Shown: piece after piece, positions 8,995-60,630 of the stretch
Numbering within the stretch: the stretch's first letter is position 1
Layout of the letters: each line of letters opens with the position of its first letter
Assembly: GCA_002329335.1 (NCBI GenBank)
Contig: DCTY01000036.1
Span: 22,169 to 86,168, forward strand
Direction of reading: 5' to 3'
Origin: Christensenella sp. UBA1428
GTDB lineage: Bacteria; Bacillota; Clostridia; Christensenellales; UBA1750
DNA length: 64,000 nt
The notes under the pieces: generated by a model
What the model was told of the DNA's origin: nothing
Seen by the model: the letters and a program-made list of their open reading frames with translations, nothing else
Databases searched by the model: none
Program-made: the position numbers and the translations under genes

Positions 8995-9031
8995 TTATAT
9001 ACCGTTTTGCGGGCGCGGTGCTTCAAACCGC

Positions 9032-9256
9032 ACCTGTGAGGCTGTCGAAAAAGTTTTTTCGACAGCCTCAAATGAAATCTGCGATTTCATTTGAAACAGC
9101 CCTGCTGCGCGCCTAAAGACGCTTGCAGGGCTGCAAAGTATGAAAATCTAACGATTTTCGTCCGTTCGCCGGCAAAGCCGGCGATGCCGGGATTGAAAGT
9201 CAAGGAAACTGCGTTTCCTTGACAATCTTTCCTCAAAGAAGTTTTTTGACACGCTG
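9032..9256 (+). repeat. Multi-hairpin intergenic repeat, copy A (full length, about 225 bp)
   Basis: Contains hairpins GAGGCTGTCGAAAAA/TTTTTCGACAGCCTC, AAATGAAAT/ATTTCATTT, GAAAATC/GATTTTC, CCGGC/GCCGG and GTCAAGGAAAC/GTTTCCTTGAC. Ends in TTTTTTGACACGC. Flanked by a 23-bp direct repeat (9009-9031 and 9257-9279). Confidence 0.9.
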
Positions 9257-9258
9257 GC

Positions 9259-9289
9259 GGGCGCGGTGCTTCAAACCGCGCCCGTTTTC
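9259..9289 (+). terminator. Rho-independent terminator of the uxaE-like gene
   Basis: GGGCGCGGT-GCTTCAA-ACCGCGCCC followed by GTTTTC. Confidence 0.8.
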
Positions 9290-17879: not shown

Positions 17880-17939
17880 AGAAACTGCGCGGGCGCCGTG
17901 CAGAAGATCCTTTTTCCCTGTTTTATTCCAATGCCGCTG

Positions 17940-18138
17940 ATGACAGCCTCAAATGAAACCTGCGATTTCATTTGAACAGCTCCGCCGTGCGCCGAAAGAT
18001 ACTTGCAGGGCTGCAAAGTACGAAAATCGAACGATTTTCGTCCGCTTAGCGGCAAAGCCGGCAATGCTGGGATGGAACGTCAAGAGGGCTTCGTTTCCCT
18101 GACAAGCCCTTCTTAAGGATATTTTTTTGACATGCTCA
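17940..18138 (+). repeat. Multi-hairpin intergenic repeat, copy B (lacks the left half of the first hairpin)
   Basis: Aligns with copy A from GACAGCCTCAAATGAAA to TTTTTTTGACATGCT. Flanked by AATGCCGCTG at 17930-17939 and 18139-18148. Confidence 0.9.
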
Positions 18139-18140
18139 AA

Positions 18141-18167
18141 TGCCGCTGCTCACAGCGGCATTTTTTT
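18141..18167 (+). terminator. Rho-independent terminator after the AbrB-family gene
   Basis: TGCCGCTG-CTCA-CAGCGGCA followed by TTTTTTT. Confidence 0.85.
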
Positions 18168-28972: not shown

Positions 28973-28983
28973 AAGCGGCGCTT

Positions 28984-29151
28984 TGGCGTGTCAAAAAACA
29001 TCCTTGAGGAAGGATCGTCAAGAAAGCGCAGCCTTCTTGACGTTCAATCCCGGCATCGCCGGCTTTTCCGCTAAGAGAACGAAAATCGTTGAATTTTCGT
29101 CCTTTGCAGCCCTGAAAGCGTCTTTGTGCGCGCGGCAGAGCGGCTTCAAAC
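28984..29151 (-). repeat. Multi-hairpin intergenic repeat, copy C (reverse orientation, 5'-truncated)
   Basis: The reverse complement aligns with copy A from TTTGAAG...AAAGACGCT..CAGGGCTGCAAAG to GTTTTTTGACACGCC. Flanked by GCGGCGCTT at 28975-28983 and 29152-29160. Confidence 0.9.
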
Positions 29152-29322
29152 GCGGCGCTTGCCATTTGGCGGGAATTGGATTATACTGAAAGCGCATGAA
29201 ATATGAATTGAAAATACGCAGCGCCGTTTTTCGGCTTGCCGGGGCGGGCATGTGATGGCGATGCCTGCGCGGGCGGGGATGCGGCGGCGTCTTTTCAAGC
29301 ACAAAGAAAGGGAACCATTGCG

Positions 29323-32746: not shown

Positions 32747-32904
32747 GCGATGCCCTCCTTTTTTTGCTTTTGCGCCGGAACGCAGGCGTCCCGCCAAACG
32801 GCGCAAATACCCCAATATATGTTGTTTATTATAGCATCGTGGCGGGTGATGTGCAAATGCTTTGCATTTAGTGTTGACTAATCCTGCGGCGCGCTGATAC
32901 AATA

Positions 32905-33034
32905 CAGATGTAAATGAGGGAGTAGTTCGCGCCCCCTGCGGGTGTGGCAAGTCAACATACTGGCCCAAACGGCCTGGCTTTCCTTAAAGAACAAGACTCA
33001 TGCACGTTTGTTTGGCGTGCATGGGTCTTTTTTG
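32905..33034 (+). promoter_or_regulatory. yybP-ykoY (Mn2+) riboswitch with terminator, upstream of mntP
   Basis: GAGGGAGUAG, GGCAAGUCAACAUAC and AACAAGACUC conserved blocks. Terminator AGACTCATGCACG/CGTGCATGGGTCT plus T6. Promoter TTGACT-18-TACAAT at 32874-32903. Confidence 0.85.
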
Positions 33035-33070: not shown

Positions 33071-33628
33071 ATGTTTTTTCTGGAGACCATCGGCATCGGC
33101 GTCGGCCTGAGCATGGACGCGTTTGCCATCACTCTGGCCAATATGATGGCGTATGCGGGCCAGCTGCGCGGCGGCAAAAAGTGGCTGATGCCGTTGTTTT
33201 TCGCGGTGTTTCAGGGCCTGATGCCGCTGCTTGGCGCGCTTTTGGGCACTGTGCTGGAGCGGTTTATCACCCGCTTTGCGCCCTGGGTCATGTTTGCGGT
33301 GCTTTGCGCCATCGGCGGGAAAATGCTGTGGGATGGGCTGCACGACGGCGGACAGGACGGCCAGACGCAGACGCGGTGCTGTTCGGTCGGCCTGATCGCC
33401 CTTCAGGCGGTGGCAACCAGCATTGACGCGTTTGCCGTTGGGGTCGGGTTTGCGGTGTCCGGGCAAAACGCATTTGCCGCCGTGCCGGTCATTGCGCTGA
33501 CGACCTTTGTCATCTGCGGTGCGGGCGTTCTTTTGGGCGGCAAATTTGCGGCGCTGCTTGAAAATAAAGCGACGATTTTCGGCGGGCTGATTCTCATTGC
33601 CATCGGGATCCTGTCGCTTGTGGGATAA
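33071..33628 (+). CDS. mntP: Manganese efflux pump MntP
   Basis: GVGLSMDAFAIT...and second repeat TSIDAFAVGV (DUF204 duplication). RBS GGAGAGGAG. Confidence 0.85.
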   Translation: MFFLETIGIGVGLSMDAFAITLANMMAYAGQLRGGKKWLMPLFFAVFQGLMPLLGALLGTVLERFITRFAPWVMFAVLCAIGGKMLWDGLHDGGQDGQTQTRCCSVGLIALQAVATSIDAFAVGVGFAVSGQNAFAAVPVIALTTFVICGAGVLLGGKFAALLENKATIFGGLILIAIGILSLVG

Positions 33629-40675: not shown

Positions 40676-42907
40676 CTATATGACCTCATGGAAGGTACGG
40701 GAGATGACCTCGCGCTGCTGCTCGCGCGACAGCTTGTTGAAATTGACCGCATAGCCGGAAACGCGGATGGTCAGGTTGGGGTAATTTTCCGGGTGTTCAT
40801 AGGCGTCCATCAGGGTTTGGCGATTGAGCACATTGACGTTGAGATGATGCGCGCCCTGGCCGAAATACCCGTCGAGCAGATGCACCAGGTTTTCCGAGCG
40901 CGCCTGCTCGGTTTTGCCCAGCGCCTGCGGCACGATGGAGAAGGTGTTGGAAATGCCGTCCTTGCATACCTGATAGGACAGCTTGGCAACCGAGTTGAGC
41001 GCAGCCAGCGCGCCGTTTTGCTCGCGTCCATGCATGGGATTGGCGCCGGGGGCAAACGGTTCGCCTCTTTTGCGCCCGTCCGGTGTGGAGCCGGTCTTTT
41101 TGCCGTATACGACGTTGGAGGTGATCGTCAGAATCGACAGCGTCGGCTCAGCGTCGCGATAAAGCGGGTGTTTTTTCAGTTCGTCGTGGAACTTTTTGAC
41201 CTGCTCGCAGGCAATCTGATCCACCCGGTCGTCGTCGTTGCCATAGGCCGGATACGTTCCTTCAATCTCAAAATCGCAGATCAGCCCGGTTTGCTCGTCG
41301 CGAATGGGGCGTACCCGGGCATAGCGGATGGCGGAGAGCGAGTCGGCGACAACCGAAAGCCCGGCGGCGCCAAAGGCCATGAACCGATGCACATTGGTAT
41401 CGTGCAGCGCCATCTGCGTCTTTTCATAGGCATATTTGTCGTGCATATAATGGATGACGTTCATGGTGTTGGCATACAGCCCCGCCAGCCATTGCCGGTA
41501 AAAGTCCAGCCGCTGGCACACTTTGTCATAATCGAGCACATCGTCCTCATAGACCGGCATCACAGGGCCGACCTGTTCGTTTTTGATTTCGTCGCGGCCG
41601 CCGTTGAGCGCCATTAAAAGCAGCTTGGCCAGATTGGCGCGCGCGCCGAAAAACTGCATGTCCTTGCCCACGCGCATTGCCGAGACGCAGCAGGCGATGG
41701 CGTAATCGTCGCCGAAAATGGGGCGCATCAGGTCGTCGTTTTCGTACTGGATGGCGTCCGTATCGCAGGAAACCCTGGCGCAGAAGCGTTTAAACGGCTC
41801 CGGAAGCGCCTGCGACCACAGCACCGTCAAATTGGGCTCGGGCGCGGGCTTGAGATTGTAGAGCGTGTTGAGCATGCGGTAGGTGTTTTTGGTCACCAGC
41901 GTGCGGCCGTCCTGCCCCATGCCGCCCAGCGCCTCGGTAATCCACATCGGGTCGCCGCCAAACAGCTCGTTGTATTCGGGCGTGCGCAGGTGCCGCGCCA
42001 TGCGCAGCTTGATGACCAGATCGTCCATCAGCTCCTGCGCCTGCTGCTCGGTGAGCAGACCGGCTTTCAAGTCGCGCTCAAAGTAGATATCCAGGAACGT
42101 GGCGGTGCGCCCAAAGCTCATCGCCGCGCCGTTTTGCTCCTTGATAGCGCCCAGATAGGCAAAATACAGCCACTGCACCGCCTCGTGTGCGTTGGCTGCG
42201 GGGCGGGAAATATCGCAGCCGTACATGGCCGCCATGTCGACGAGCATGCCAAGGAAATTGATCTGCTGGAAAAGCTCCTCCTGCTGGCGGATATGCTCCA
42301 CGTCCATCGGTTCCAGCGCCAGAGCGGCCTTGTCCTTCTTTTTCTGCTCGATCAGATACGCCACGCCGTAGAGCGGAACGCGCCGGTAATCGCCGATGAT
42401 CCGGCCGCGGCCATAGGCGTCGGGCAGGCCGGTGATCAGCCCGCAGTGGCGCGCTGCGCGCATCTGGCTGTTGTACGCGCGAAAAACGCCGTCGTTATGG
42501 GTGGTGCGGAATTTAAATTCTTCCTCGACTTTGGAGGAAAGCTCATAGCCGTAGGCGCGGCAGGCGTCGCGCGTCATGCGCAGCCCCCCAAAGGGATTGA
42601 CCCCGCGCTTGAGGGGCCGGTCGGTCTGCAGGCCGACGATCAGCTCATTTTCCCGATCCAGATAGCCGGGCTTGTAGGTCAAAAGCGACATGACCGTGTG
42701 CGTGTCCACGTCCAGCACGCCGCCGAACTCCTGTTCCAGAGTCATGAGGTTTTCAAGCTTGTGCAGCAGTTTTTCGGTGCGCGCCGTCGGGCCGGTCAAA
42801 AAAGCGCCGTCCGATTCATAGGGCGTGTAGTTTTGCTGGATAAAATCGCGTACGTCGATGGTTTCCTGCCAGCGGCCGGGGTTGAAGCCTTCCCATTGTG
42901 CGGTCAT
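40676..42907 (-). CDS. pflB: Formate C-acetyltransferase (pyruvate formate-lyase)
   Basis: 743 aa. Active-site ACCVSAM and glycyl-radical motif RVSGYAV. RBS AAGGAGG. Confidence 0.95.
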
Positions 42908-43219
42908 TTCAGACGCCTCCTTTTTTTATCAAAACACCGCCTGCTGTCTTTTTGAAAACAAAAAGACAGCATCAAAAGCGATGCTGCCCAGACGGTCGGC
43001 TGTTGTCGGCGCTCATTCCCCTGTGGTAATCCACAAAACCCGTCAGTCATAAGCACCCCTGATCTGCCTTCACTATAGCACAGCGCGCCGGAGGCGTCAA
43101 GGGTGCGCGGCAAAAAAGAAATTTGGCCGAAAAAATGGACAGGACGGCAAAAAAGCGATATAATAAAGCTGCAACGATATTTTCATAATTTTGTGTCAAA
43201 CCCGAAAGGAGTGTCTGTT

Positions 43220-44749
43220 TTGACCGGATCTTACGCGCTTTTGACAAAGTCCCCTGAAAGCCTGGGAATTCCCAGCGCTGCGATTTTGAAGTATCTGAAA
43301 ACGCTCGACGCCGCAGGCGTGAACATGCACGGCTTTTTGCTGGCGCGCCACAGCAGCATTGCCGCCGAGGGCTATTACGCGCCCTTTTATCAGGGGCAGC
43401 TGCACCGGATGTATTCCACCAGCAAAAGCTTTGCTTCCTTTGCCATCGGGCTATTGGTGGACGACGGCAAAGTGCGCCTGACGGATAAAATTGCCTCCCA
43501 TTTTCCGGATAAGCTGCCCAAAACGCCGCTGCATCCGTATATCGAAGCGATGACCGTGCGCGATCTGCTGATGATGTCCACCTGTTTTGCCGGGACAACG
43601 TATAACCGCGTCAATGTGGACTATGAGGATCCGACCGATTGGGTTGCGACGTTTTTTGCCTGTCCGCCGGATCGCTATCCCGGCCAGACGTTTGTTTACG
43701 ATACCTCGGCCAGCACCGTTCTGGGCGCGCTTGCCGAACGGCTCACCGGCATGACCGTGCCGGATTTCCTGCGCGCGCGGGGATTTGAACAGTTGGGCTT
43801 TTCCCGGGAAGCCACCGCGGTGAAAACCGAGTCCGGCGAGTTTTCCTGGATGGGCTCGGGGCTTTTATGCTCGCTGCGCGATCTGGCGCTGTTTGCCCAG
43901 GTTTGTCTGGGTCAGGGCGAGCTCAACGGCCGGCGTATCATCAGCCGGGAATATATCGCCGCGGCGACGTCCAAGCAGATTGACAATTCCCTTTCCGGGC
44001 GCGAATACGGCTATGGCTATCAGTTCTGGATGAGCCGCGCAGGCTTTAACTGCTCCGGCTTGGGCGGACAGATGGCGTATTGCCTGCCGGGCAAGGACGC
44101 GTTTTTGGCGACGATCGCCGATACGCAGGGCCAGAGCTGGGCCGGCGCCGTCATGGAGGACGCGCTGCACAGCTGCATTGTATCGGAAATGACGGAAAAT
44201 CCCCTGCCGGAAAATCCGCAGGATCAAAAAGCGCTGGCGGATTTTATTGCCGGGCTGCATGTCAAGCCGCTTCCCAATACGTTTGTTCCGCAAACGGCCC
44301 AGGAGGTCAGCGGCAGGACCTATCATATGAACGCCAACGACCCCAAAGCGGCGGGCGCGCTTAGCTGGCGCTGGATGAAGGTGGACTTTACTGCGGCGGG
44401 CGGGGCGCTGACCTATGGGGACGATGAAGGCGAAAAAACGCTTGCGTTTGGCTATAACGCCTTTCAGGCGCAGAACTTTCCCGGTTTTGCGCCGCCGGAG
44501 CAGACGCAGGGCAAGCCGATGCTGGTTTATGGTTTCCACAGCAAGCCTGCGCTGACGCTGCCGTGCATGACCAGCGCGGCGTGGGTGGGCGAAAAGACGC
44601 TCAATTTGCTGTGCTATGCCACCGGCGCGTTTTTGGGCACGCTGAAAATGCAGCTGGTCTTTGATCGGGATCATGTGACCGTTCACAGCGTGAAGTTTTC
44701 CGAAAAATTCTGGGAAGACCTGCAGGGCTTCCAGTCCGGGCAGCTTTAA
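43220..44749 (+). CDS. Serine hydrolase (beta-lactamase/transpeptidase-like, class C fold)
   Basis: SxxK motif YSTSKSF and overall beta-lactamase-family N-domain. TTG start 8 nt after GAAAGGAG. Confidence 0.75.
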   Translation: MTGSYALLTKSPESLGIPSAAILKYLKTLDAAGVNMHGFLLARHSSIAAEGYYAPFYQGQLHRMYSTSKSFASFAIGLLVDDGKVRLTDKIASHFPDKLPKTPLHPYIEAMTVRDLLMMSTCFAGTTYNRVNVDYEDPTDWVATFFACPPDRYPGQTFVYDTSASTVLGALAERLTGMTVPDFLRARGFEQLGFSREATAVKTESGEFSWMGSGLLCSLRDLALFAQVCLGQGELNGRRIISREYIAAATSKQIDNSLSGREYGYGYQFWMSRAGFNCSGLGGQMAYCLPGKDAFLATIADTQGQSWAGAVMEDALHSCIVSEMTENPLPENPQDQKALADFIAGLHVKPLPNTFVPQTAQEVSGRTYHMNANDPKAAGALSWRWMKVDFTAAGGALTYGDDEGEKTLAFGYNAFQAQNFPGFAPPEQTQGKPMLVYGFHSKPALTLPCMTSAAWVGEKTLNLLCYATGAFLGTLKMQLVFDRDHVTVHSVKFSEKFWEDLQGFQSGQL

Positions 44750-44751
44750 AA

Positions 44752-44962
44752 CGGTCAGCAAAATATATTTGAGAAAGATTTGTCAATAAGCCGTCGTTGT
44801 CTGGACGTCAATTCCGGCGTCGGCGGCGGATAAAAGCGCAAGCGTTCCTTGCGTTGCAGCCATGCAAGCGTATTTTGGCGCGCGGCAGGGGCGCTGCATA
44901 TGAAAGCGAAAGCGCTGGTTTTATTTGAGGCTGCCGAAAGGACTTTTCGACAGCCTCATTGT
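44752..44962 (-). repeat. Multi-hairpin intergenic repeat, copy E (reverse orientation, near full length but diverged)
   Basis: Contains GAGGCTGCCGAAAGG/CTTTTCGACAGCCTC, GTTGCAGCCATGCAAGCGT...GCGCGCGGCAG and CAATTCCGGCGTCGGCGGC, alignable to copies A and C. Flanked by AAAACGG on both sides. Confidence 0.7.
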
Positions 44963-45035
44963 TAGAACCGCGCCGGAACAAAACGGATAAAAATTGAAAT
45001 ACCGGCGGAATCTGCCGGATCAGCGAGGCCTGACG

Positions 45036-56615: not shown

Positions 56616-56769
56616 GAAATAAAAGACCTGGTTGGCGCCAGCGAACGAAAAGGCGAAAAGATCCGGCGCATTTGCGCAAAATTGCGGCGCGCGGATTTTA
56701 TGGATGAAAAATTTGATGTTGGGGCTTGACAAAATGTGCGTCGGGTGCTTATAATCATTGCATAATGTG

Positions 56770-57030
56770 ACGACCGGAAAGAAGTACTTGGGTTCGCCCT
56801 TTCAGAGAGCTGCGGTTTGGTGCAACGCGGCAGGGAGCCTTGGGAAATACATTCCGTGAGCAGCGCACCAAACGGCTTTGGCCAAGTAGGCTGCGACGGG
56901 CGCGCCCGTTATCGCGATAGGGTATGCATGTACCTGAAGGCTGTCTTTGCTTTGACACAGGCAGCGAACCGAGGTGGTACCACGGGCAAGGAATTTCCGC
57001 TCGTCCTCCGTAAGGAGGACGGGCTTTTTT
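56770..57030 (+). promoter_or_regulatory. T-box riboswitch leader (candidate Tyr specifier)
   Basis: AGAGAG bay, distal-loop GGUGCAA, F-box CCGUUA, T-box GAGGUGGUACCACGG. Terminator CGTCCTCCGTAAGGAGGACG plus T-run. Promoter TTGACA-18-TATAAT at 56726-56755. Confidence 0.85.
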
Positions 57031-57080
57031 ATTTTGTCCGGCCTTGGCGACATGCAGATCAACAAGAAGGAGTGGTTCAT

Positions 57081-58640
57081 ATGTGGATCAAACTGGCGAT
57101 GCTGATTGTCTTTTTTGGGGCAATGGTCGCTGTCGGACTGCAGTGCCGCCGCCATGCGACGGATGTAAACGGCTTTGTGCTCGGCTCGCGTTCGGTCGGC
57201 CCGTGGCTGACGGCGTTTGCCTATGGCACTTCGTACTTTTCCGCGGTTATCTTTGTCGGATACGCCGGTCAATTTGGCTGGCGCTTTGGCGTGGCTTCGA
57301 CCTGGATCGGCCTTGGCAACGCGTTTTTGGGCTCGCTGCTGGCCTGGGTTGTGCTGGGCAGACGCACGCGCCTGCTGACCCGCAAGCTGGACAGCGCGAC
57401 GATGCCGGAATTTTTCGGCCGCCGCTATGACAGCCAGGCGCTGAAAATCGGCGCGTCGCTGATCATATTCGTGTTTTTGATTCCGTATACCGCGTCGCTG
57501 TACAACGGCCTTTCCCGGCTGTTTGCCATGGCGTTTCACATCGACTACACCGTATGCATTTTGCTCATGGCGGTGCTCACCGGCGTTTATGTCATCGCAG
57601 GGGGGTATATGGCCACGGCCATCAACGATTTTATTCAGGGCATTATCATGCTGGGCGGCATTGTGGCCGTTGTGGCGGCGGTGCTCAACACCAACGGCGG
57701 CTTTATCCAATCCCTTGGCGCGCTGGCGCAGGTGGAAGACCCTGCTACGCAGATTCCCGGCGTGTTCGCCTCGTTTTTCGGGCCGGATCCGCTTGGGCTT
57801 TTGTCCGTTGTGATCTTAACCAGCCTGGGCACCTGGGGCCTGCCGCAGATGGTGCAGAAATTTTACGCCATCAAATCGGAAAAATCCATCGATAAGGGGA
57901 CGATCATTTCGACGATTTTCGCCGTTGTCGTGGCGGGCGGCTGCTATTTTTTGGGCGGCTTCGGCCGGCTGTTTACCACGCAGGAGGCGGTCACGGCGGC
58001 GGGCTATGACTCCATTATTCCGGCCATGCTCTCCGGCCTGCCGGATGTGCTGATCGGCGTGGTGGTGATCCTGGTGCTTTCCGCGTCGATGTCGACGCTT
58101 TCCTCGCTGGTTTTGACCTCCGCCTCGACGCTGACGCTGGACGTCATCCGCGGGCATCTGGTCAAAAAAATGGACGGGCGCAGGCAGCTTTTCGTGATCC
58201 GCGCGCTTATTGTGGTGTTTATCGCCATTTCCGTTGTGCTGGCGGTGGTTCAGTACAAAAGCTCGGTTACGTTTATCGCGCAGCTGATGGGGATTTCCTG
58301 GGGCGCGCTGGCCGGCGCGTTTCTGGCGCCGTTCCTCTATGGCCTTTACTGGAAGCGGACGACCAGGGCGTCGGTATGGGTCAGCTTTGCAATGGGCGTG
58401 GGCCTGATGTGCGCCAATATGTTCTTTGGCGGCTTGCTCCCCGCGTTTTTGCGCTCGCCGATCAACTGCGGCGCGTTTGCGATGGTTGCGTCGCTTGTCG
58501 TGGTGCCGGTGGTCAGCCTGTTTACCAAAGCGCCTGATCACGCTTTGGTGGACGACGCCTTCTCCTGCTATGAGCAAAAGGTCGTTGTTACCAGCAAAAC
58601 GGCCCTTGGCGACGCGTCGGCACAGGAAGAGGCGCTGTGA
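57081..58640 (+). CDS. Sodium:solute symporter (SSS family)
   Basis: 519 aa, about 13 TM segments. N-terminal GFVLGSRSVGPWLTAFAYGTSYFSAV pattern of PutP/PanF-type SSS carriers. RBS GAAGGAG. Confidence 0.9.
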   Translation: MWIKLAMLIVFFGAMVAVGLQCRRHATDVNGFVLGSRSVGPWLTAFAYGTSYFSAVIFVGYAGQFGWRFGVASTWIGLGNAFLGSLLAWVVLGRRTRLLTRKLDSATMPEFFGRRYDSQALKIGASLIIFVFLIPYTASLYNGLSRLFAMAFHIDYTVCILLMAVLTGVYVIAGGYMATAINDFIQGIIMLGGIVAVVAAVLNTNGGFIQSLGALAQVEDPATQIPGVFASFFGPDPLGLLSVVILTSLGTWGLPQMVQKFYAIKSEKSIDKGTIISTIFAVVVAGGCYFLGGFGRLFTTQEAVTAAGYDSIIPAMLSGLPDVLIGVVVILVLSASMSTLSSLVLTSASTLTLDVIRGHLVKKMDGRRQLFVIRALIVVFIAISVVLAVVQYKSSVTFIAQLMGISWGALAGAFLAPFLYGLYWKRTTRASVWVSFAMGVGLMCANMFFGGLLPAFLRSPINCGAFAMVASLVVVPVVSLFTKAPDHALVDDAFSCYEQKVVVTSKTALGDASAQEEAL

Positions 58641-58792: not shown

Positions 58793-60433
58793 ATGCCCAT
58801 TACAGATTTGCTGATCCGCAATGCTCAGCAGTACGGCAGCGAGGTTGCGCTGGTAGAAATCAACCCGGATGTGTGCGAGGTGCGCCGGCGCGTTTCCTGG
58901 CGTGAATACGAGCTGATCGAGGAGGGCGCCGCACAGACTTTCCGGCGCGAGATCACCTGGCGCGCGTTTAATGAAAAGGCCAATCGCTGCGCCAATCTGC
59001 TTTTGCAGCGCGGCGTGCGCAAGGGCGATAAGGTGGCAATTTTGCTGATGAACGGCCTGGAATGGCTGCCGGTCTATTTTGGTATTTTAAAAACCGGCGC
59101 GCTGGCAGTGCCGCTCAATTACCGCTATACCGCCGATGAAATCGCGTACTGTCTGGATCTGGCGGATGTGGACGCGCTGTTTTTCGGTCCGGAGTTTATC
59201 GGGCGCATCGAGGAAATTGTGGACGAAAAGATGCCGCGCGTCAAGCTTTTGCTCTATGTCGGCGACGCTTGCCCGACGTTTGCGGAAAACTATCTGCATC
59301 TGGCGGCCAACTGCGATTCGAGCGAGCCGGGCGTCCCGCTTTGCGATCAGGACGACGCGGCGATCTATTTTTCCTCCGGCACGACCGGGTTTCCCAAGGC
59401 GATTTTGCATCCGCACCGCAGCCTGATGCACGCCTGTGTGGTGGAACAAAAGCACCATGGTCAAACCCATGACGACGTATTTTTGTGCATACCGCCGCTT
59501 TACCATACCGGCGCCAAAATGCACTGGTTTGGCTCGCTGCTCTCCGGCGGACGCGCGGTGCTGCTCAAGGGTGTGCGCCCGGAGGTGATCTTTGATACCG
59601 TTTCGCGCGAGCACTGCACGATCGTCTGGCTTTTGGTGCCCTGGGCGCAGGATATTCTGGACGCCATCGACCGCGGACAGCTGGATCCGGCCAAATACGA
59701 GCTTTCCCAGTGGCGTCTGATGCATATCGGCGCGCAGCCGGTGCCGCCCAGCCTGATCAAGCGCTGGAAAAAAATATTCCCGCACCATGATTATGACACC
59801 AACTACGGCCTGAGCGAATCCATCGGCCCCGGCTGCGTGCATCTGGGGATTGAGAACATCGACCATGTCGGCGCAATCGGCGTGCCGGGCTATGGCTGGC
59901 AGGTTCGGATTGTCGACGAGCAGCGCCGTCCGGTTGCTCAGGGCGAGGTCGGCGAGCTGGCGGTGTATGGCCCCGGCGTCATGACCTGCTATTACAAGGA
60001 TGAAAAGGCCACGGCGGAGGTGCTCTCCGACGGATGGCTGTATACCGGCGATATGGCGATGCAGGATCCGGATGGATTTATTTATCTGGTCGACCGTAAA
60101 AAGGACGTCATCATCTCCGGCGGCGAAAACCTCTATCCGGTGCAGATCGAGGATTATCTGCGCGCCTGTCCGCAGATCAGCGACGTGGCGGTTATTGGCC
60201 TGCCCGATCCGCGTCTGGGCGAAATCGCCGCGGCGATCATCCAGGTTAAGGAGGGGCAATCCCTCACCGAAGCGCAGGTGCAGGATTTTTGCCGGGAGCT
60301 GCCGCGCTATAAGCGGCCCAGACGCATCATTTTTGCCGATGTGCCGCGCAATCCAACCGGTAAGATTGAAAAGCCGCTTTTGCGTAAAATCTACTGCGGG
60401 GAGAGCCTGGTGGCCTCTCAGGTGCGCGGATAA
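58793..60433 (+). CDS. AMP-dependent acyl-CoA synthetase/ligase
   Basis: AMP-binding motif YFSSGTTGFPKAI, YGLSE, TGDMA and C-terminal PRNPTGKI. Confidence 0.85.
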   Translation: MPITDLLIRNAQQYGSEVALVEINPDVCEVRRRVSWREYELIEEGAAQTFRREITWRAFNEKANRCANLLLQRGVRKGDKVAILLMNGLEWLPVYFGILKTGALAVPLNYRYTADEIAYCLDLADVDALFFGPEFIGRIEEIVDEKMPRVKLLLYVGDACPTFAENYLHLAANCDSSEPGVPLCDQDDAAIYFSSGTTGFPKAILHPHRSLMHACVVEQKHHGQTHDDVFLCIPPLYHTGAKMHWFGSLLSGGRAVLLKGVRPEVIFDTVSREHCTIVWLLVPWAQDILDAIDRGQLDPAKYELSQWRLMHIGAQPVPPSLIKRWKKIFPHHDYDTNYGLSESIGPGCVHLGIENIDHVGAIGVPGYGWQVRIVDEQRRPVAQGEVGELAVYGPGVMTCYYKDEKATAEVLSDGWLYTGDMAMQDPDGFIYLVDRKKDVIISGGENLYPVQIEDYLRACPQISDVAVIGLPDPRLGEIAAAIIQVKEGQSLTEAQVQDFCRELPRYKRPRRIIFADVPRNPTGKIEKPLLRKIYCGESLVASQVRG

Positions 60434-60440
60434 CGGCGCT

Positions 60441-60572
60441 ATGCAGGGATGCAAAGTGCGAAAATCTAACGGTTTTCGTCGGCTTAGCGGCAAAACCGGC
60501 AATGCCGGATTGAAAGTCAGGGAAATCGCGTTTCCTTGACAATCCTTCCTTAAAAATGTTCTTTGACACACT
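60441..60572 (+). repeat. Multi-hairpin intergenic repeat, copy D (strongly 5'-truncated)
   Basis: Aligns with the copy A 3' part from GCAGGGATGCAAAG through GAAAATCTAACGGTTTTC and GTCAGGGAAATCGCGTTTCCTTGAC to CTTTGACACACT. Lies between the ligase stop and its terminator. Confidence 0.9.
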
Positions 60573-60574
60573 GA

Positions 60575-60610
60575 AACGGATCTGCCGGTATACATGGCAG
60601 ATCCGTTTTT
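60575..60610 (+). terminator. Rho-independent terminator after the acyl-CoA ligase gene
   Basis: AACGGATCTGCC-GGTATACAT-GGCAGATCCGTT followed by TTT. Confidence 0.85.
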
Positions 60611-60630
60611 CACAGGAGGGGGGGCTTGTG

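Follow-up and report, generated by a model that had tools for sequence, protein, structure and literature searches.

Small hairpin-rich repeats inserted at the foot of hairpins, mostly intrinsic terminators, in Christensenella sp. UBA1428

How does a small repeat come to lie, several times over, directly ahead of transcription terminators and between flanking duplications of differing length? This question is raised by a 64-kb stretch of the genome of Christensenella sp. UBA1428 (contig DCTY01000036.1, positions 22,169 to 86,168; hereafter the window), in which blastn and nhmmer revealed five copies of one repeat family (A to E) and none further. With a copy found in another strain (F), six insertions were available in all. 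An original prediction, made from the letters of the window, had described the copies as insertions into or beside terminator hairpins, and had proposed that no ordinary transposase produced them. We found that the copies are insertions with true target duplications of variable length, that the 3' ends of copies A to D lie at the 5' foot of hairpins, and that the presence of some copies differs among strains. The repeat is a miniature, non-autonomous element that targets the foot of terminators; a few insertion sequences behave in this way, and no miniature element has been reported to do so.

Target duplications and empty sites

To find the sites without the insertion, we searched for contigs of related strains that span the insertion sites, using cluster listings of the flanking proteins. 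Near-identical relatives of UxaE, the product of the gene ahead of copy A, were confined to a few assemblies of public read sets; the relatives ranking after them were at most 68% identical, and the named ones, Christensenellales- and Clostridiales-like, were about 64-65% identical. A Logan contig from SRR5321173, whose reads represent the window strain, was 100% identical to the window, and the other samples were 97-99.3% identical. About ten public samples contain the species, among them ERR10101491, ERR10101499, ERR13612632, SRR30752883 and JGI 3300045924; the window is part of an NCBI contig of 89.5 kb.

Copy C is absent from five strains (L008, L009, L010, L011 and L012). The spacer between the epimerase gene and the sugar-phosphate isomerase gene measures 176 nt in four of them versus 350 nt in the window. 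The empty site reads ...GCCGGCGCG TAA A[A/C]GCGGCGCTT GCCATTTGG..., with a single GCGGCGCTT, whereas this sequence is found on both sides of copy C (28975-28983 and 29152-29160). Copy C is thus an insertion, and the 9-bp repeat is a true target duplication. The duplication may reach 13 bp (AAAMGCGGCGCTT), with one mismatch at a base that is polymorphic between strains, 9 bp being certain; if it does, the bases 29148-29151 (GTTT on the minus strand) at the 5' junction would be attributable to the target and to the element alike. On the minus strand, the duplication at the 3' end of the element forms the left arm of a stem-loop, behind which GTTTTCC follows. Copy C was seen only in the window strain, which indicates that it is young. 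As a separate observation, the fifth empty strain (L011, JGI 3300038674) has a spacer of 87 nt through an extra 89-nt deletion at about 1070-1080 of its contig (window ~29203-29291), upstream of the sugar-phosphate isomerase gene.

The site of copy B is empty in one strain, ERR10101491 (L013), which carries an intact terminator, AATGCCGCTG-ATGA-CAGCGGCAT, followed by eight T. In the window, AATGCCGCTG is present at 17930-17939 and again at 18139-18148, with AATGCCGCTGATGACAGC/CTCAAATG at the left junction. Besides the left arm and the loop of the terminator, the left copy includes the beginning of the right arm. The duplication amounts to 12-18 bp; the junction falls within a stretch of six nucleotides, GACAGC, common to the target and to the first hairpin of the element (H1). 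All the filled strains have CTCA as the loop of the right-hand terminator, whereas the left partial copy, like the empty strain, has ATGA. This CTCA loop creates a second TGCTCA, matching the last six bases of the element. Either the loop mutated after the insertion, or the apparently empty allele is a deletion scar between two ACAGC repeats. In two filled strains (L015 and L016) a further 8-bp deletion lies exactly at the 5' junction of copy B.

The spacer after the AbrB-like gene is a hot spot of structural variation: L013 has about 38 extra bases (...GCCGCAGTTTGCGGCGAAATTTACGCCTTACGCAGGC...) at ~1822-1860 (window ~17882-17890), right after the stop codon of this gene. These include another small stem-loop, and a shorter variant is present in L014.

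At both sites the target, the repeat at C and the terminator at B, is single in the strains that lack the insertion, and hence the duplications are not chance. The possibility that the flanking repeats were there before the element, which the original prediction had named as its own refutation, is answered in its favor at these two loci.

The sixth copy, F, was found in ERR10101491 (L008 5086-5204) at window position 32867/32868, as a full-length element with two internal deletions. Its site is empty in the window and in L023 and L024. It lies not in a gene terminator but where divergent promoters separate dtd (minus strand) from the mntP leader, and its start, TGAGG, directly follows the 3' foot of the target hairpin. 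The ERR10101491 contig ends inside the element; when we sought the right junction through MntP variants, the contigs returned came from other strains and all of them were empty.

No empty site for A, D or E was present among the strains seen: A is filled in six other samples, D is present with 99% identity in L017 and L018, and E is present in L019 and L020. In L017 (JGI 3300045924, 1324-2932), the AMP-ligase gene upstream of copy D was called as fragments of 141, 41 and 151 aa, which reflects either a pseudogene or an assembly problem. Taken together, presence and absence are polymorphic at three loci (B, C and F), with clean empty sites. Lineages that share about 98-99% nucleotide identity have gained different insertions, indicating that the family has been recently active.

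The flanking repeats of copies A to E were all recovered at their predicted positions in a check of the sequence. Their lengths do vary, as had been proposed, but two of them had been underestimated. The 23-bp repeat at copy A, GCGGGCGCGGTGCTTCAAACCGC (9009-9031 and 9257-9279), extends to 29 bp with two mismatches (93%; 9009-9037 versus 9257-9285), and these 29 bp correspond exactly to the stem-loop of the uxaE terminator (11-bp stem, 7-nt loop, 11-bp stem). The heptamer CCGTTTT directly precedes the left hairpin copy. At copy B, the duplication had been taken as 10 bp. At copy D the repeat is limited to AACGG (60432-60436 and 60575-60579; 5 bp), and copy E is flanked by AAAACGG (44748-44754 and 44980-44986; 7 bp). 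The lengths of 29, 12-18, 9-13, 7 and 5 bp do not conform to the fixed length typical of one transposase. Whole-hairpin duplications accompany full-length copies (A, and the visible side of F) and partial ones accompany the truncated copies B, C and D. Microhomology at the junction amounts to 6 nt in B, 3-4 nt in C (TTT(G)) and 0-2 nt in D.

Repeat architecture and target hairpins

The copies measure 138-225 bp, and the full element is about 220 bp long. Identity to copy A is 82-83% for B, C and D and 69% for E (blastn). The element is small and without a gene, its coding capacity being assessed from size and structure alone. The 3' end, ...TTTTTTGACAYRCTSA, is common to all copies, and the 5' ends differ. 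Copies A and E begin with TGAGGCTGTCGAAAA, the left arm of H1, which is a perfect palindrome of 32 nt, and the start TGAGG is identical in A, E and F. Copy B starts inside the right arm of H1, copy C at the end of the second hairpin (H2), and copy D just ahead of the right arm of the third (H3). Internal deletions are present in F and E.

The ends of the element, 5'-TGAGGCTGTCGAAAAA ... TTTTTTGACAYRCTSA-3', form imperfect terminal inverted repeats of 16-20 bp with TGAG...CTCA tips. The best pair, the 5' sequence TGAGGCTGTCGAAAAAGTTT and the reverse complement of the 3' end of copy B, TGAGCATGTCAAAAAAATAT, matches at 15 of 20 positions; the other pairs, formed with the 3' ends of copies A to D, match at 12-14 of 20. 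We considered an origin from the ISL3 family, whose terminal repeats start with GGCTCTTCG and which generates an 8-bp duplication (PMC6305408, PMC11448079). This was rejected: the tip GGCTGTCG matches that start at 7 of 9 positions with a gap and at one end only, and the duplications are not of 8 bp. Near the 3' end of copy A are two perfect TTGACA hexamers (9219-9224 and 9242-9247) that have equivalents in B to D, one of them directed outward at 10 nt from the tip of the element. The flanks showed no -10 box to match, and we do not claim a promoter.

The element consists of a chain of six to seven strong hairpins; copy A with its flanks folds with an energy of -149 kcal/mol (z = -11.9). The very stable hairpins are kept across the copies, with compensatory changes in 5 of 37 pairs, and copies A, B and D lie in sense orientation between a stop codon and a terminator. 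Both features would fit a reading in which the copies were conserved structured RNA or regulatory modules of 3' untranslated regions that never moved, the flanking repeats being pre-existing or the result of local slippage. As an account of their origin, however, this is refuted by the polymorphism and the clean empty sites at three loci; moreover, the repeat has no Rfam match, and copies C and E are antisense to the flanking genes. We therefore regard a non-mobile origin as highly improbable. A secondary effect on the host, such as protection of mRNA 3' ends, is possible and would not explain where the copies came from.

To locate the junctions with respect to secondary structure, we folded the observed empty sites of B and C and the reconstructed ones of A and D. 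The 3' end of the element lies at the first paired base (A, C and D), or one base inside (B), of a stem of 11-13 bp that, read in the orientation of the element, is followed by a T-run. In copy A this stem is that of the uxaE terminator, and in copy D it is a 13-bp stem predicted for the reconstructed site. The target of copy C is a cryptic stem-loop followed by TTTT that overlaps the stop codon of the epimerase gene, although the copy is antisense to the neighboring genes. Copy E is the exception, with no convincing hairpin at its junction, only CCGTTTT. As background, a hairpin with a stem of at least 8 bp has its 5' foot no more than 1 nt away at about 3% of the oriented intergenic positions. 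Under a strict no-bulge rule, three of the five junctions are at a hairpin foot (binomial estimate ~3e-4); when the one-bulge stem of copy C is accepted, four of five are (P ~5e-6). The hairpin-foot count was used for this purpose in place of the built-in terminator scan, which is too permissive for an enrichment estimate (48 found versus 32 expected). The target stems differ in sequence and have no common motif, which indicates that recognition is structural. As the original prediction had proposed, the element inserts at hairpins, in most cases those of intrinsic terminators, and targeting of hairpins is supported by these counts.

The position of copy A was also considered under another reading, in which an element with its own terminal hairpins had inserted at CCGTTTT. 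This was rejected: A, B and D each have a different hairpin on their right, and that of B is native, as its empty site shows.

Hairpin targets, and an element itself made of hairpins, could suit an HUH element (IS200/IS605, REPIN-RAYT or another such type) that acts on single-stranded DNA and recognizes hairpins at the replication fork, a mechanism that the original prediction had suggested. We consider it very unlikely. These families lack terminal inverted repeats and leave the target unduplicated, and here the duplications are verified and the terminal repeats are present. They insert beside a fixed tetra- or pentanucleotide, whereas the targets described above share no sequence. In addition, both orientations occur among genes of one strand (A, B and D plus; C and E minus), and no HUH gene was found in the window.

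Table 1. Positions of the repeat copies, their flanking duplications and target hairpins in the window.
Feature	Positions	Strand	Method
Copy A, full-length element, TGAGGCTGTCG...GACACGCTG	9037-9256	+	blastn, nhmmer
H1 palindrome in copy A	9038-9069	+	
Copy A, left stem-loop copy, two mismatches in right arm, no T-run	9009-9037	+	
Copy A, right copy, uxaE terminator, intact, with 11-bp stem and 7-nt loop ahead of GTTTTC	9257-9289	+	
Copy B, 5'-truncated, ends ...GACATGCTCA	17942-18138	+	blastn, nhmmer
Copy B, left partial terminator copy: left arm, loop ATGA, CAGC; 18 nt match empty allele L013	17930-17947	+	
Copy B, right copy, working terminator AATGCCGCTG-CTCA-CAGCGGCATT, then T-run	18139-18167	+	
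Copy C, 5'-truncated	28984-29151	-	blastn, nhmmer
Copy C, duplication at element 3' end, 2 nt past epimerase stop codon	28971-28983	-	
Copy C, second duplication copy, at element 5' end	29148-29160	-	
Copy D, 5'-truncated, ends ...GACACACTGA	60437-60574	+	blastn, nhmmer
Copy D, left AACGG, overlaps TAA stop (60431-60433) of AMP-ligase gene	60432-60436	+	
Copy D, terminator AACGGATCTGCC-GGTATACAT-GGCAGATCCGTT, then T-run	60575-60612	+	
Copy E, divergent, full-length, internal insertions/deletions	44755-44958 (44755-44979 with 5' extension)	-	blastn, nhmmer
Copy E, 5' extension of 21-22 nt homologous to copy A left flank, then second CCGTTTT (44980-44986)	44959-44986	-	
Copy E, flanking CCGTTTT (minus-strand reading) at element 3' end, overlaps stop codon of beta-lactamase-like gene	44748-44754	-	
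Insertion F, empty site, small hairpin TGCAAATGCTTTGCA (TGCAAA-TGC-TTTGCA)	32853-32867	+	

Transposition in trans or target-primed copying

The terminal inverted repeats with TG...CA tips and the foot-to-foot duplication at copy A point to a transposase acting in trans. We give about even chances to the reading that the family is of the MITE (miniature inverted-repeat transposable element) type, non-coding, hairpin-rich and about 220 bp long, moved in trans by an enzyme that recognizes structure, and modified by deletions that span the junction. The original prediction had held that insertions of this kind are not what a transposase produces; the terminal repeats, the precedent of IS1272/TnSha1 and the cruciform model (PMC5678879) speak against that claim.

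According to the transposition reading, the enzyme would be encoded elsewhere in the genome and would recognize DNA structure and not sequence. It would join the 3' end of the element to the 5' foot of a GC-rich stem-loop with a T-run behind it, which in practice would mean mostly intrinsic terminators just past stop codons. In a complete, two-ended reaction both 5' feet of the extruded stem-loop would be attacked, and repair of the gaps would duplicate the whole stem-loop. The duplication would then be as long as the hairpin it targets (29 bp in A), so that variable hairpins would give variable lengths. The right-hand copy of the hairpin would keep the T-run and stay the working terminator of the gene, the left-hand copy being redundant. 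The truncation of B, C and D could be accounted for by one deletion in each, which would begin within the left hairpin copy, end among the hairpins of the element's 5' part and have short direct repeats at its borders. It would arise while gaps are filled across the folded template or shortly thereafter. A deletion that spans the junction predicts whole duplications with full-length copies and partial ones with truncated copies. Deletions are frequent in the family: those of F and E are internal, and the extra 8 bp lost at the B junction in L015 and L016 fits a deletion origin. For the right junction of F, the predicted duplication is GCAAATGCTTTGCAT.

Several observations weigh against this reading. 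No partner transposase was seen in the window. The truncated copies B, C and D have each lost 5' sequence; if selection for a working right-hand terminator (or for the coding sequence that it overlaps) is assumed, it could explain the bias. Copy C is young yet already truncated, whereas A and E, which are old and fixed, have their full length. Copy E, with a 7-bp repeat, no hairpin and homology to the left flank of A, is not predicted by a two-ended transposase. The orientation of the element follows the T-run in four of four cases (p = 0.06), which a symmetric attack on a cruciform would not predict. IS1272, for its part, deletes a portion of the target hairpin and leaves no duplication (PMC4923244, PMC5678879). 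Finally, the 29-bp duplication of copy A is deduced from a filled site.

A 3'-anchored, target-primed copying reaction is a less probable explanation, though one to be reckoned with. In it, a nick at the stem-loop's 5' foot would prime the copying of a donor, RNA or DNA, toward its 5' end; the reaction would stall in the hairpins of the element or overrun its 5' end, and the new strand would be rejoined to the target through microhomology. The expected outcome is 5' truncation, carry-over of donor flank and variable duplications. Eukaryotic non-long-terminal-repeat retrotransposons, such as the long interspersed elements (LINEs), and short interspersed elements (SINEs) leave such products: a fixed 3' end, 5' truncation, variable duplications, microhomology and, occasionally, donor flank carried along. 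The likeness concerns the products only, and it extends here to the truncation, the variable duplication and the microhomology.

The six copies with a common 3' end and varying 5' ends agree with target-primed copying, as do the truncation points, which lie in or beside the 3' arms of hairpins, and the microhomologies found at the 5' junctions by comparison with the empty alleles (GACAGC in B, TTT(G) in C). It would also accommodate the truncation of the young copy C and the orientation along the T-run, and no 3'-truncated copy was seen among the six. Copy E carries 21-22 nt homologous to the flank of A (local alignment score 15; random windows 6.5 ± 1.5), joined at the same CCGTTTT that precedes the left hairpin copy of A. 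This gives the impression that copying of an A-like locus ran beyond its 5' end and that the product was joined through a microhomology of 7 nt, with the caveat that the heptamer AAAACGG/CCGTTTT is 3.4-fold over-represented (51 occurrences in the window versus 15 ± 3 expected from shuffles). The heptamer is also the tail of several terminators.

Against target-primed copying, the TG...CA-tipped terminal repeats, which LINEs and SINEs do not have, suggest a two-ended transposase, and the 5' end of the element is defined, since A, E and F share the TGAGG start. The association of full-length copies with whole duplications and of truncated copies with partial ones would need an extra assumption. 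The 3' flank of the donor is never carried, there is no A-rich 3' tail of the kind found in LINEs and SINEs, and no reverse transcriptase was found among the open reading frames of the window. To our knowledge, no such mechanism exists for a bacterial repeat. We hold it doubtful that a bacterial non-autonomous element spreads by target-primed copying and not by two-ended transposition, with the stem-loop's 5' foot as the primer. The 5' truncation, the microhomology and copy E hint at a mechanism of replication or template switching, as the original prediction had suggested, without making one necessary.

Six insertions are too few to separate the transposase and copying readings. The mixture of whole duplications of the hairpin, partial ones accompanied by truncation and microhomology, and a single copy with apparent donor flank offers a concrete test between a cruciform transposase and target-primed copying, and the latter, if true, would be new for bacteria. 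Only a few insertion sequences are known to enter terminators in a structure-directed manner, and the mechanism behind this is not settled. The family described here provides a compact, recently active and non-coding example, in which natural empty sites define the junctions to the base.

Related systems, searches and other features of the window

One precedent for the choice of target is that of IS1272 and TnSha1 of staphylococci (IS1182 family), which always insert into hairpins, mostly terminators confirmed by RNA-seq, at the base of the hairpin (PMC4923244). In the cruciform model, attack at the 5' feet duplicates the whole stem-loop (PMC5678879). Insertion at the hairpin base without sequence specificity, mostly at terminators just downstream of genes, is what we also observed. 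IS1272 differs in that it is autonomous, inserts in both orientations and partly deletes or replaces the target hairpin, whereas here the hairpin is duplicated and its right-hand copy is functional.

IS1630 from Mycoplasma fermentans (IS30 family; Calcutt et al. 1999, cited in PMC2853133 and PMC3317919) is reported to insert into inverted repeats that vary in sequence and to duplicate them, giving duplications of 16-26 bp. Copy A resembles it in its long duplication, a whole stem-loop of 29 bp at a site seen only in the filled state; the duplications of B, C and D are partial. IS1630 is reported as an autonomous element of 1.2-1.4 kb with its own transposase and terminal repeats of 27 bp, compared with 220 non-coding bp here. 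The present element also differs in its host, a high-GC Clostridia-like genome, and in its often partial duplications with 5' truncation. It encodes nothing and has no demonstrated sequence relationship to either system, so it is not a member of IS1630 or of the IS1182 group; it could only be a possible passenger of an enzyme of the IS30 type, a DDE transposase.

Group IIC introns use the stem-loop of intrinsic terminators as an insertion signal and have a fixed orientation, but they insert downstream of the hairpin, generate no duplication and are ribozymes. The present element differs from them in its insertion at the 5' foot, and no group II match was obtained in Rfam at E-values up to 10.

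The bacterial MITEs and other small repeats (BOX, RUP, SPRITE, Correia and ERIC) are small, non-coding, multi-copy and intergenic (PMC10969869, PMC3184786). The element described here shares with bacterial MITEs the terminal inverted repeats, a target duplication and a strongly folded transcript. Its small non-coding size, its terminal inverted repeats and a duplication verified against empty sites at B and C place it with the MITEs. Those described so far generate short duplications of fixed length, mostly in AT-rich targets, unlike this element, and no MITE that targets terminator hairpins is listed in a recent review of prokaryotic MITEs.

Searches for relatives gave no positive result. Rfam 15 contained no family match at the gathering threshold or at E-values up to 10, apart from matches at chance level. 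Three exact patterns, two from the core and one from the 5' end, found no true copy in the GTDB representative genomes, the JGI metagenome contigs or IMG/VR; the only pattern match (L006) lies in sequence unrelated to the element and arose by chance. No match was obtained by blastn against plasmid and phage records. Among about 50 open reading frames of the window scanned for protein domains, none had a transposase, reverse transcriptase, recombinase or HUH domain; a Spo0A domain was found, which confirms that the host is a Firmicute. Short-read contigs of the species stop inside the element after uxaE, which shows that it is present in multiple copies across the genome. The element thus breaks short-read assemblies of the species, and this accounts for its invisibility in genome and metagenome collections.

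The genes that flank the copies are ordinary. They encode a tagaturonate epimerase, an AbrB-like membrane protein, a UDP-glucose epimerase, a beta-lactamase-like protein and an AMP-ligase, as well as MatE, GNAT and PelX-like proteins. The insertion places a stable hairpin block of 140-220 nt between the stop codon and the terminator and leaves the terminator intact. Insertions of this kind would be almost harmless; they may alter the stability of mRNA 3' ends.

Three regulatory RNA candidates were also noted in the window. Upstream of mntP (33071-33628), a manganese efflux pump gene, a match to the yybP-ykoY manganese riboswitch at 32949-32980 (+) is below threshold (18 bits versus a gathering value of 45). 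It lies downstream of a promoter-like site, TTGACT-17-TACAAT, and is probably a real riboswitch that the model aligned only in part. A ZMP/ZTP riboswitch (63.9 bits; 42979-43060, minus strand) is located directly upstream of a pyruvate formate-lyase-like gene (40676-42907, minus strand), an arrangement that corresponds to the classic 'pfl motif'. Lastly, a T-box leader (99 bits; 56761-57011, plus strand) precedes a gene of the sodium:solute symporter family within the open reading frame 56817-58640.

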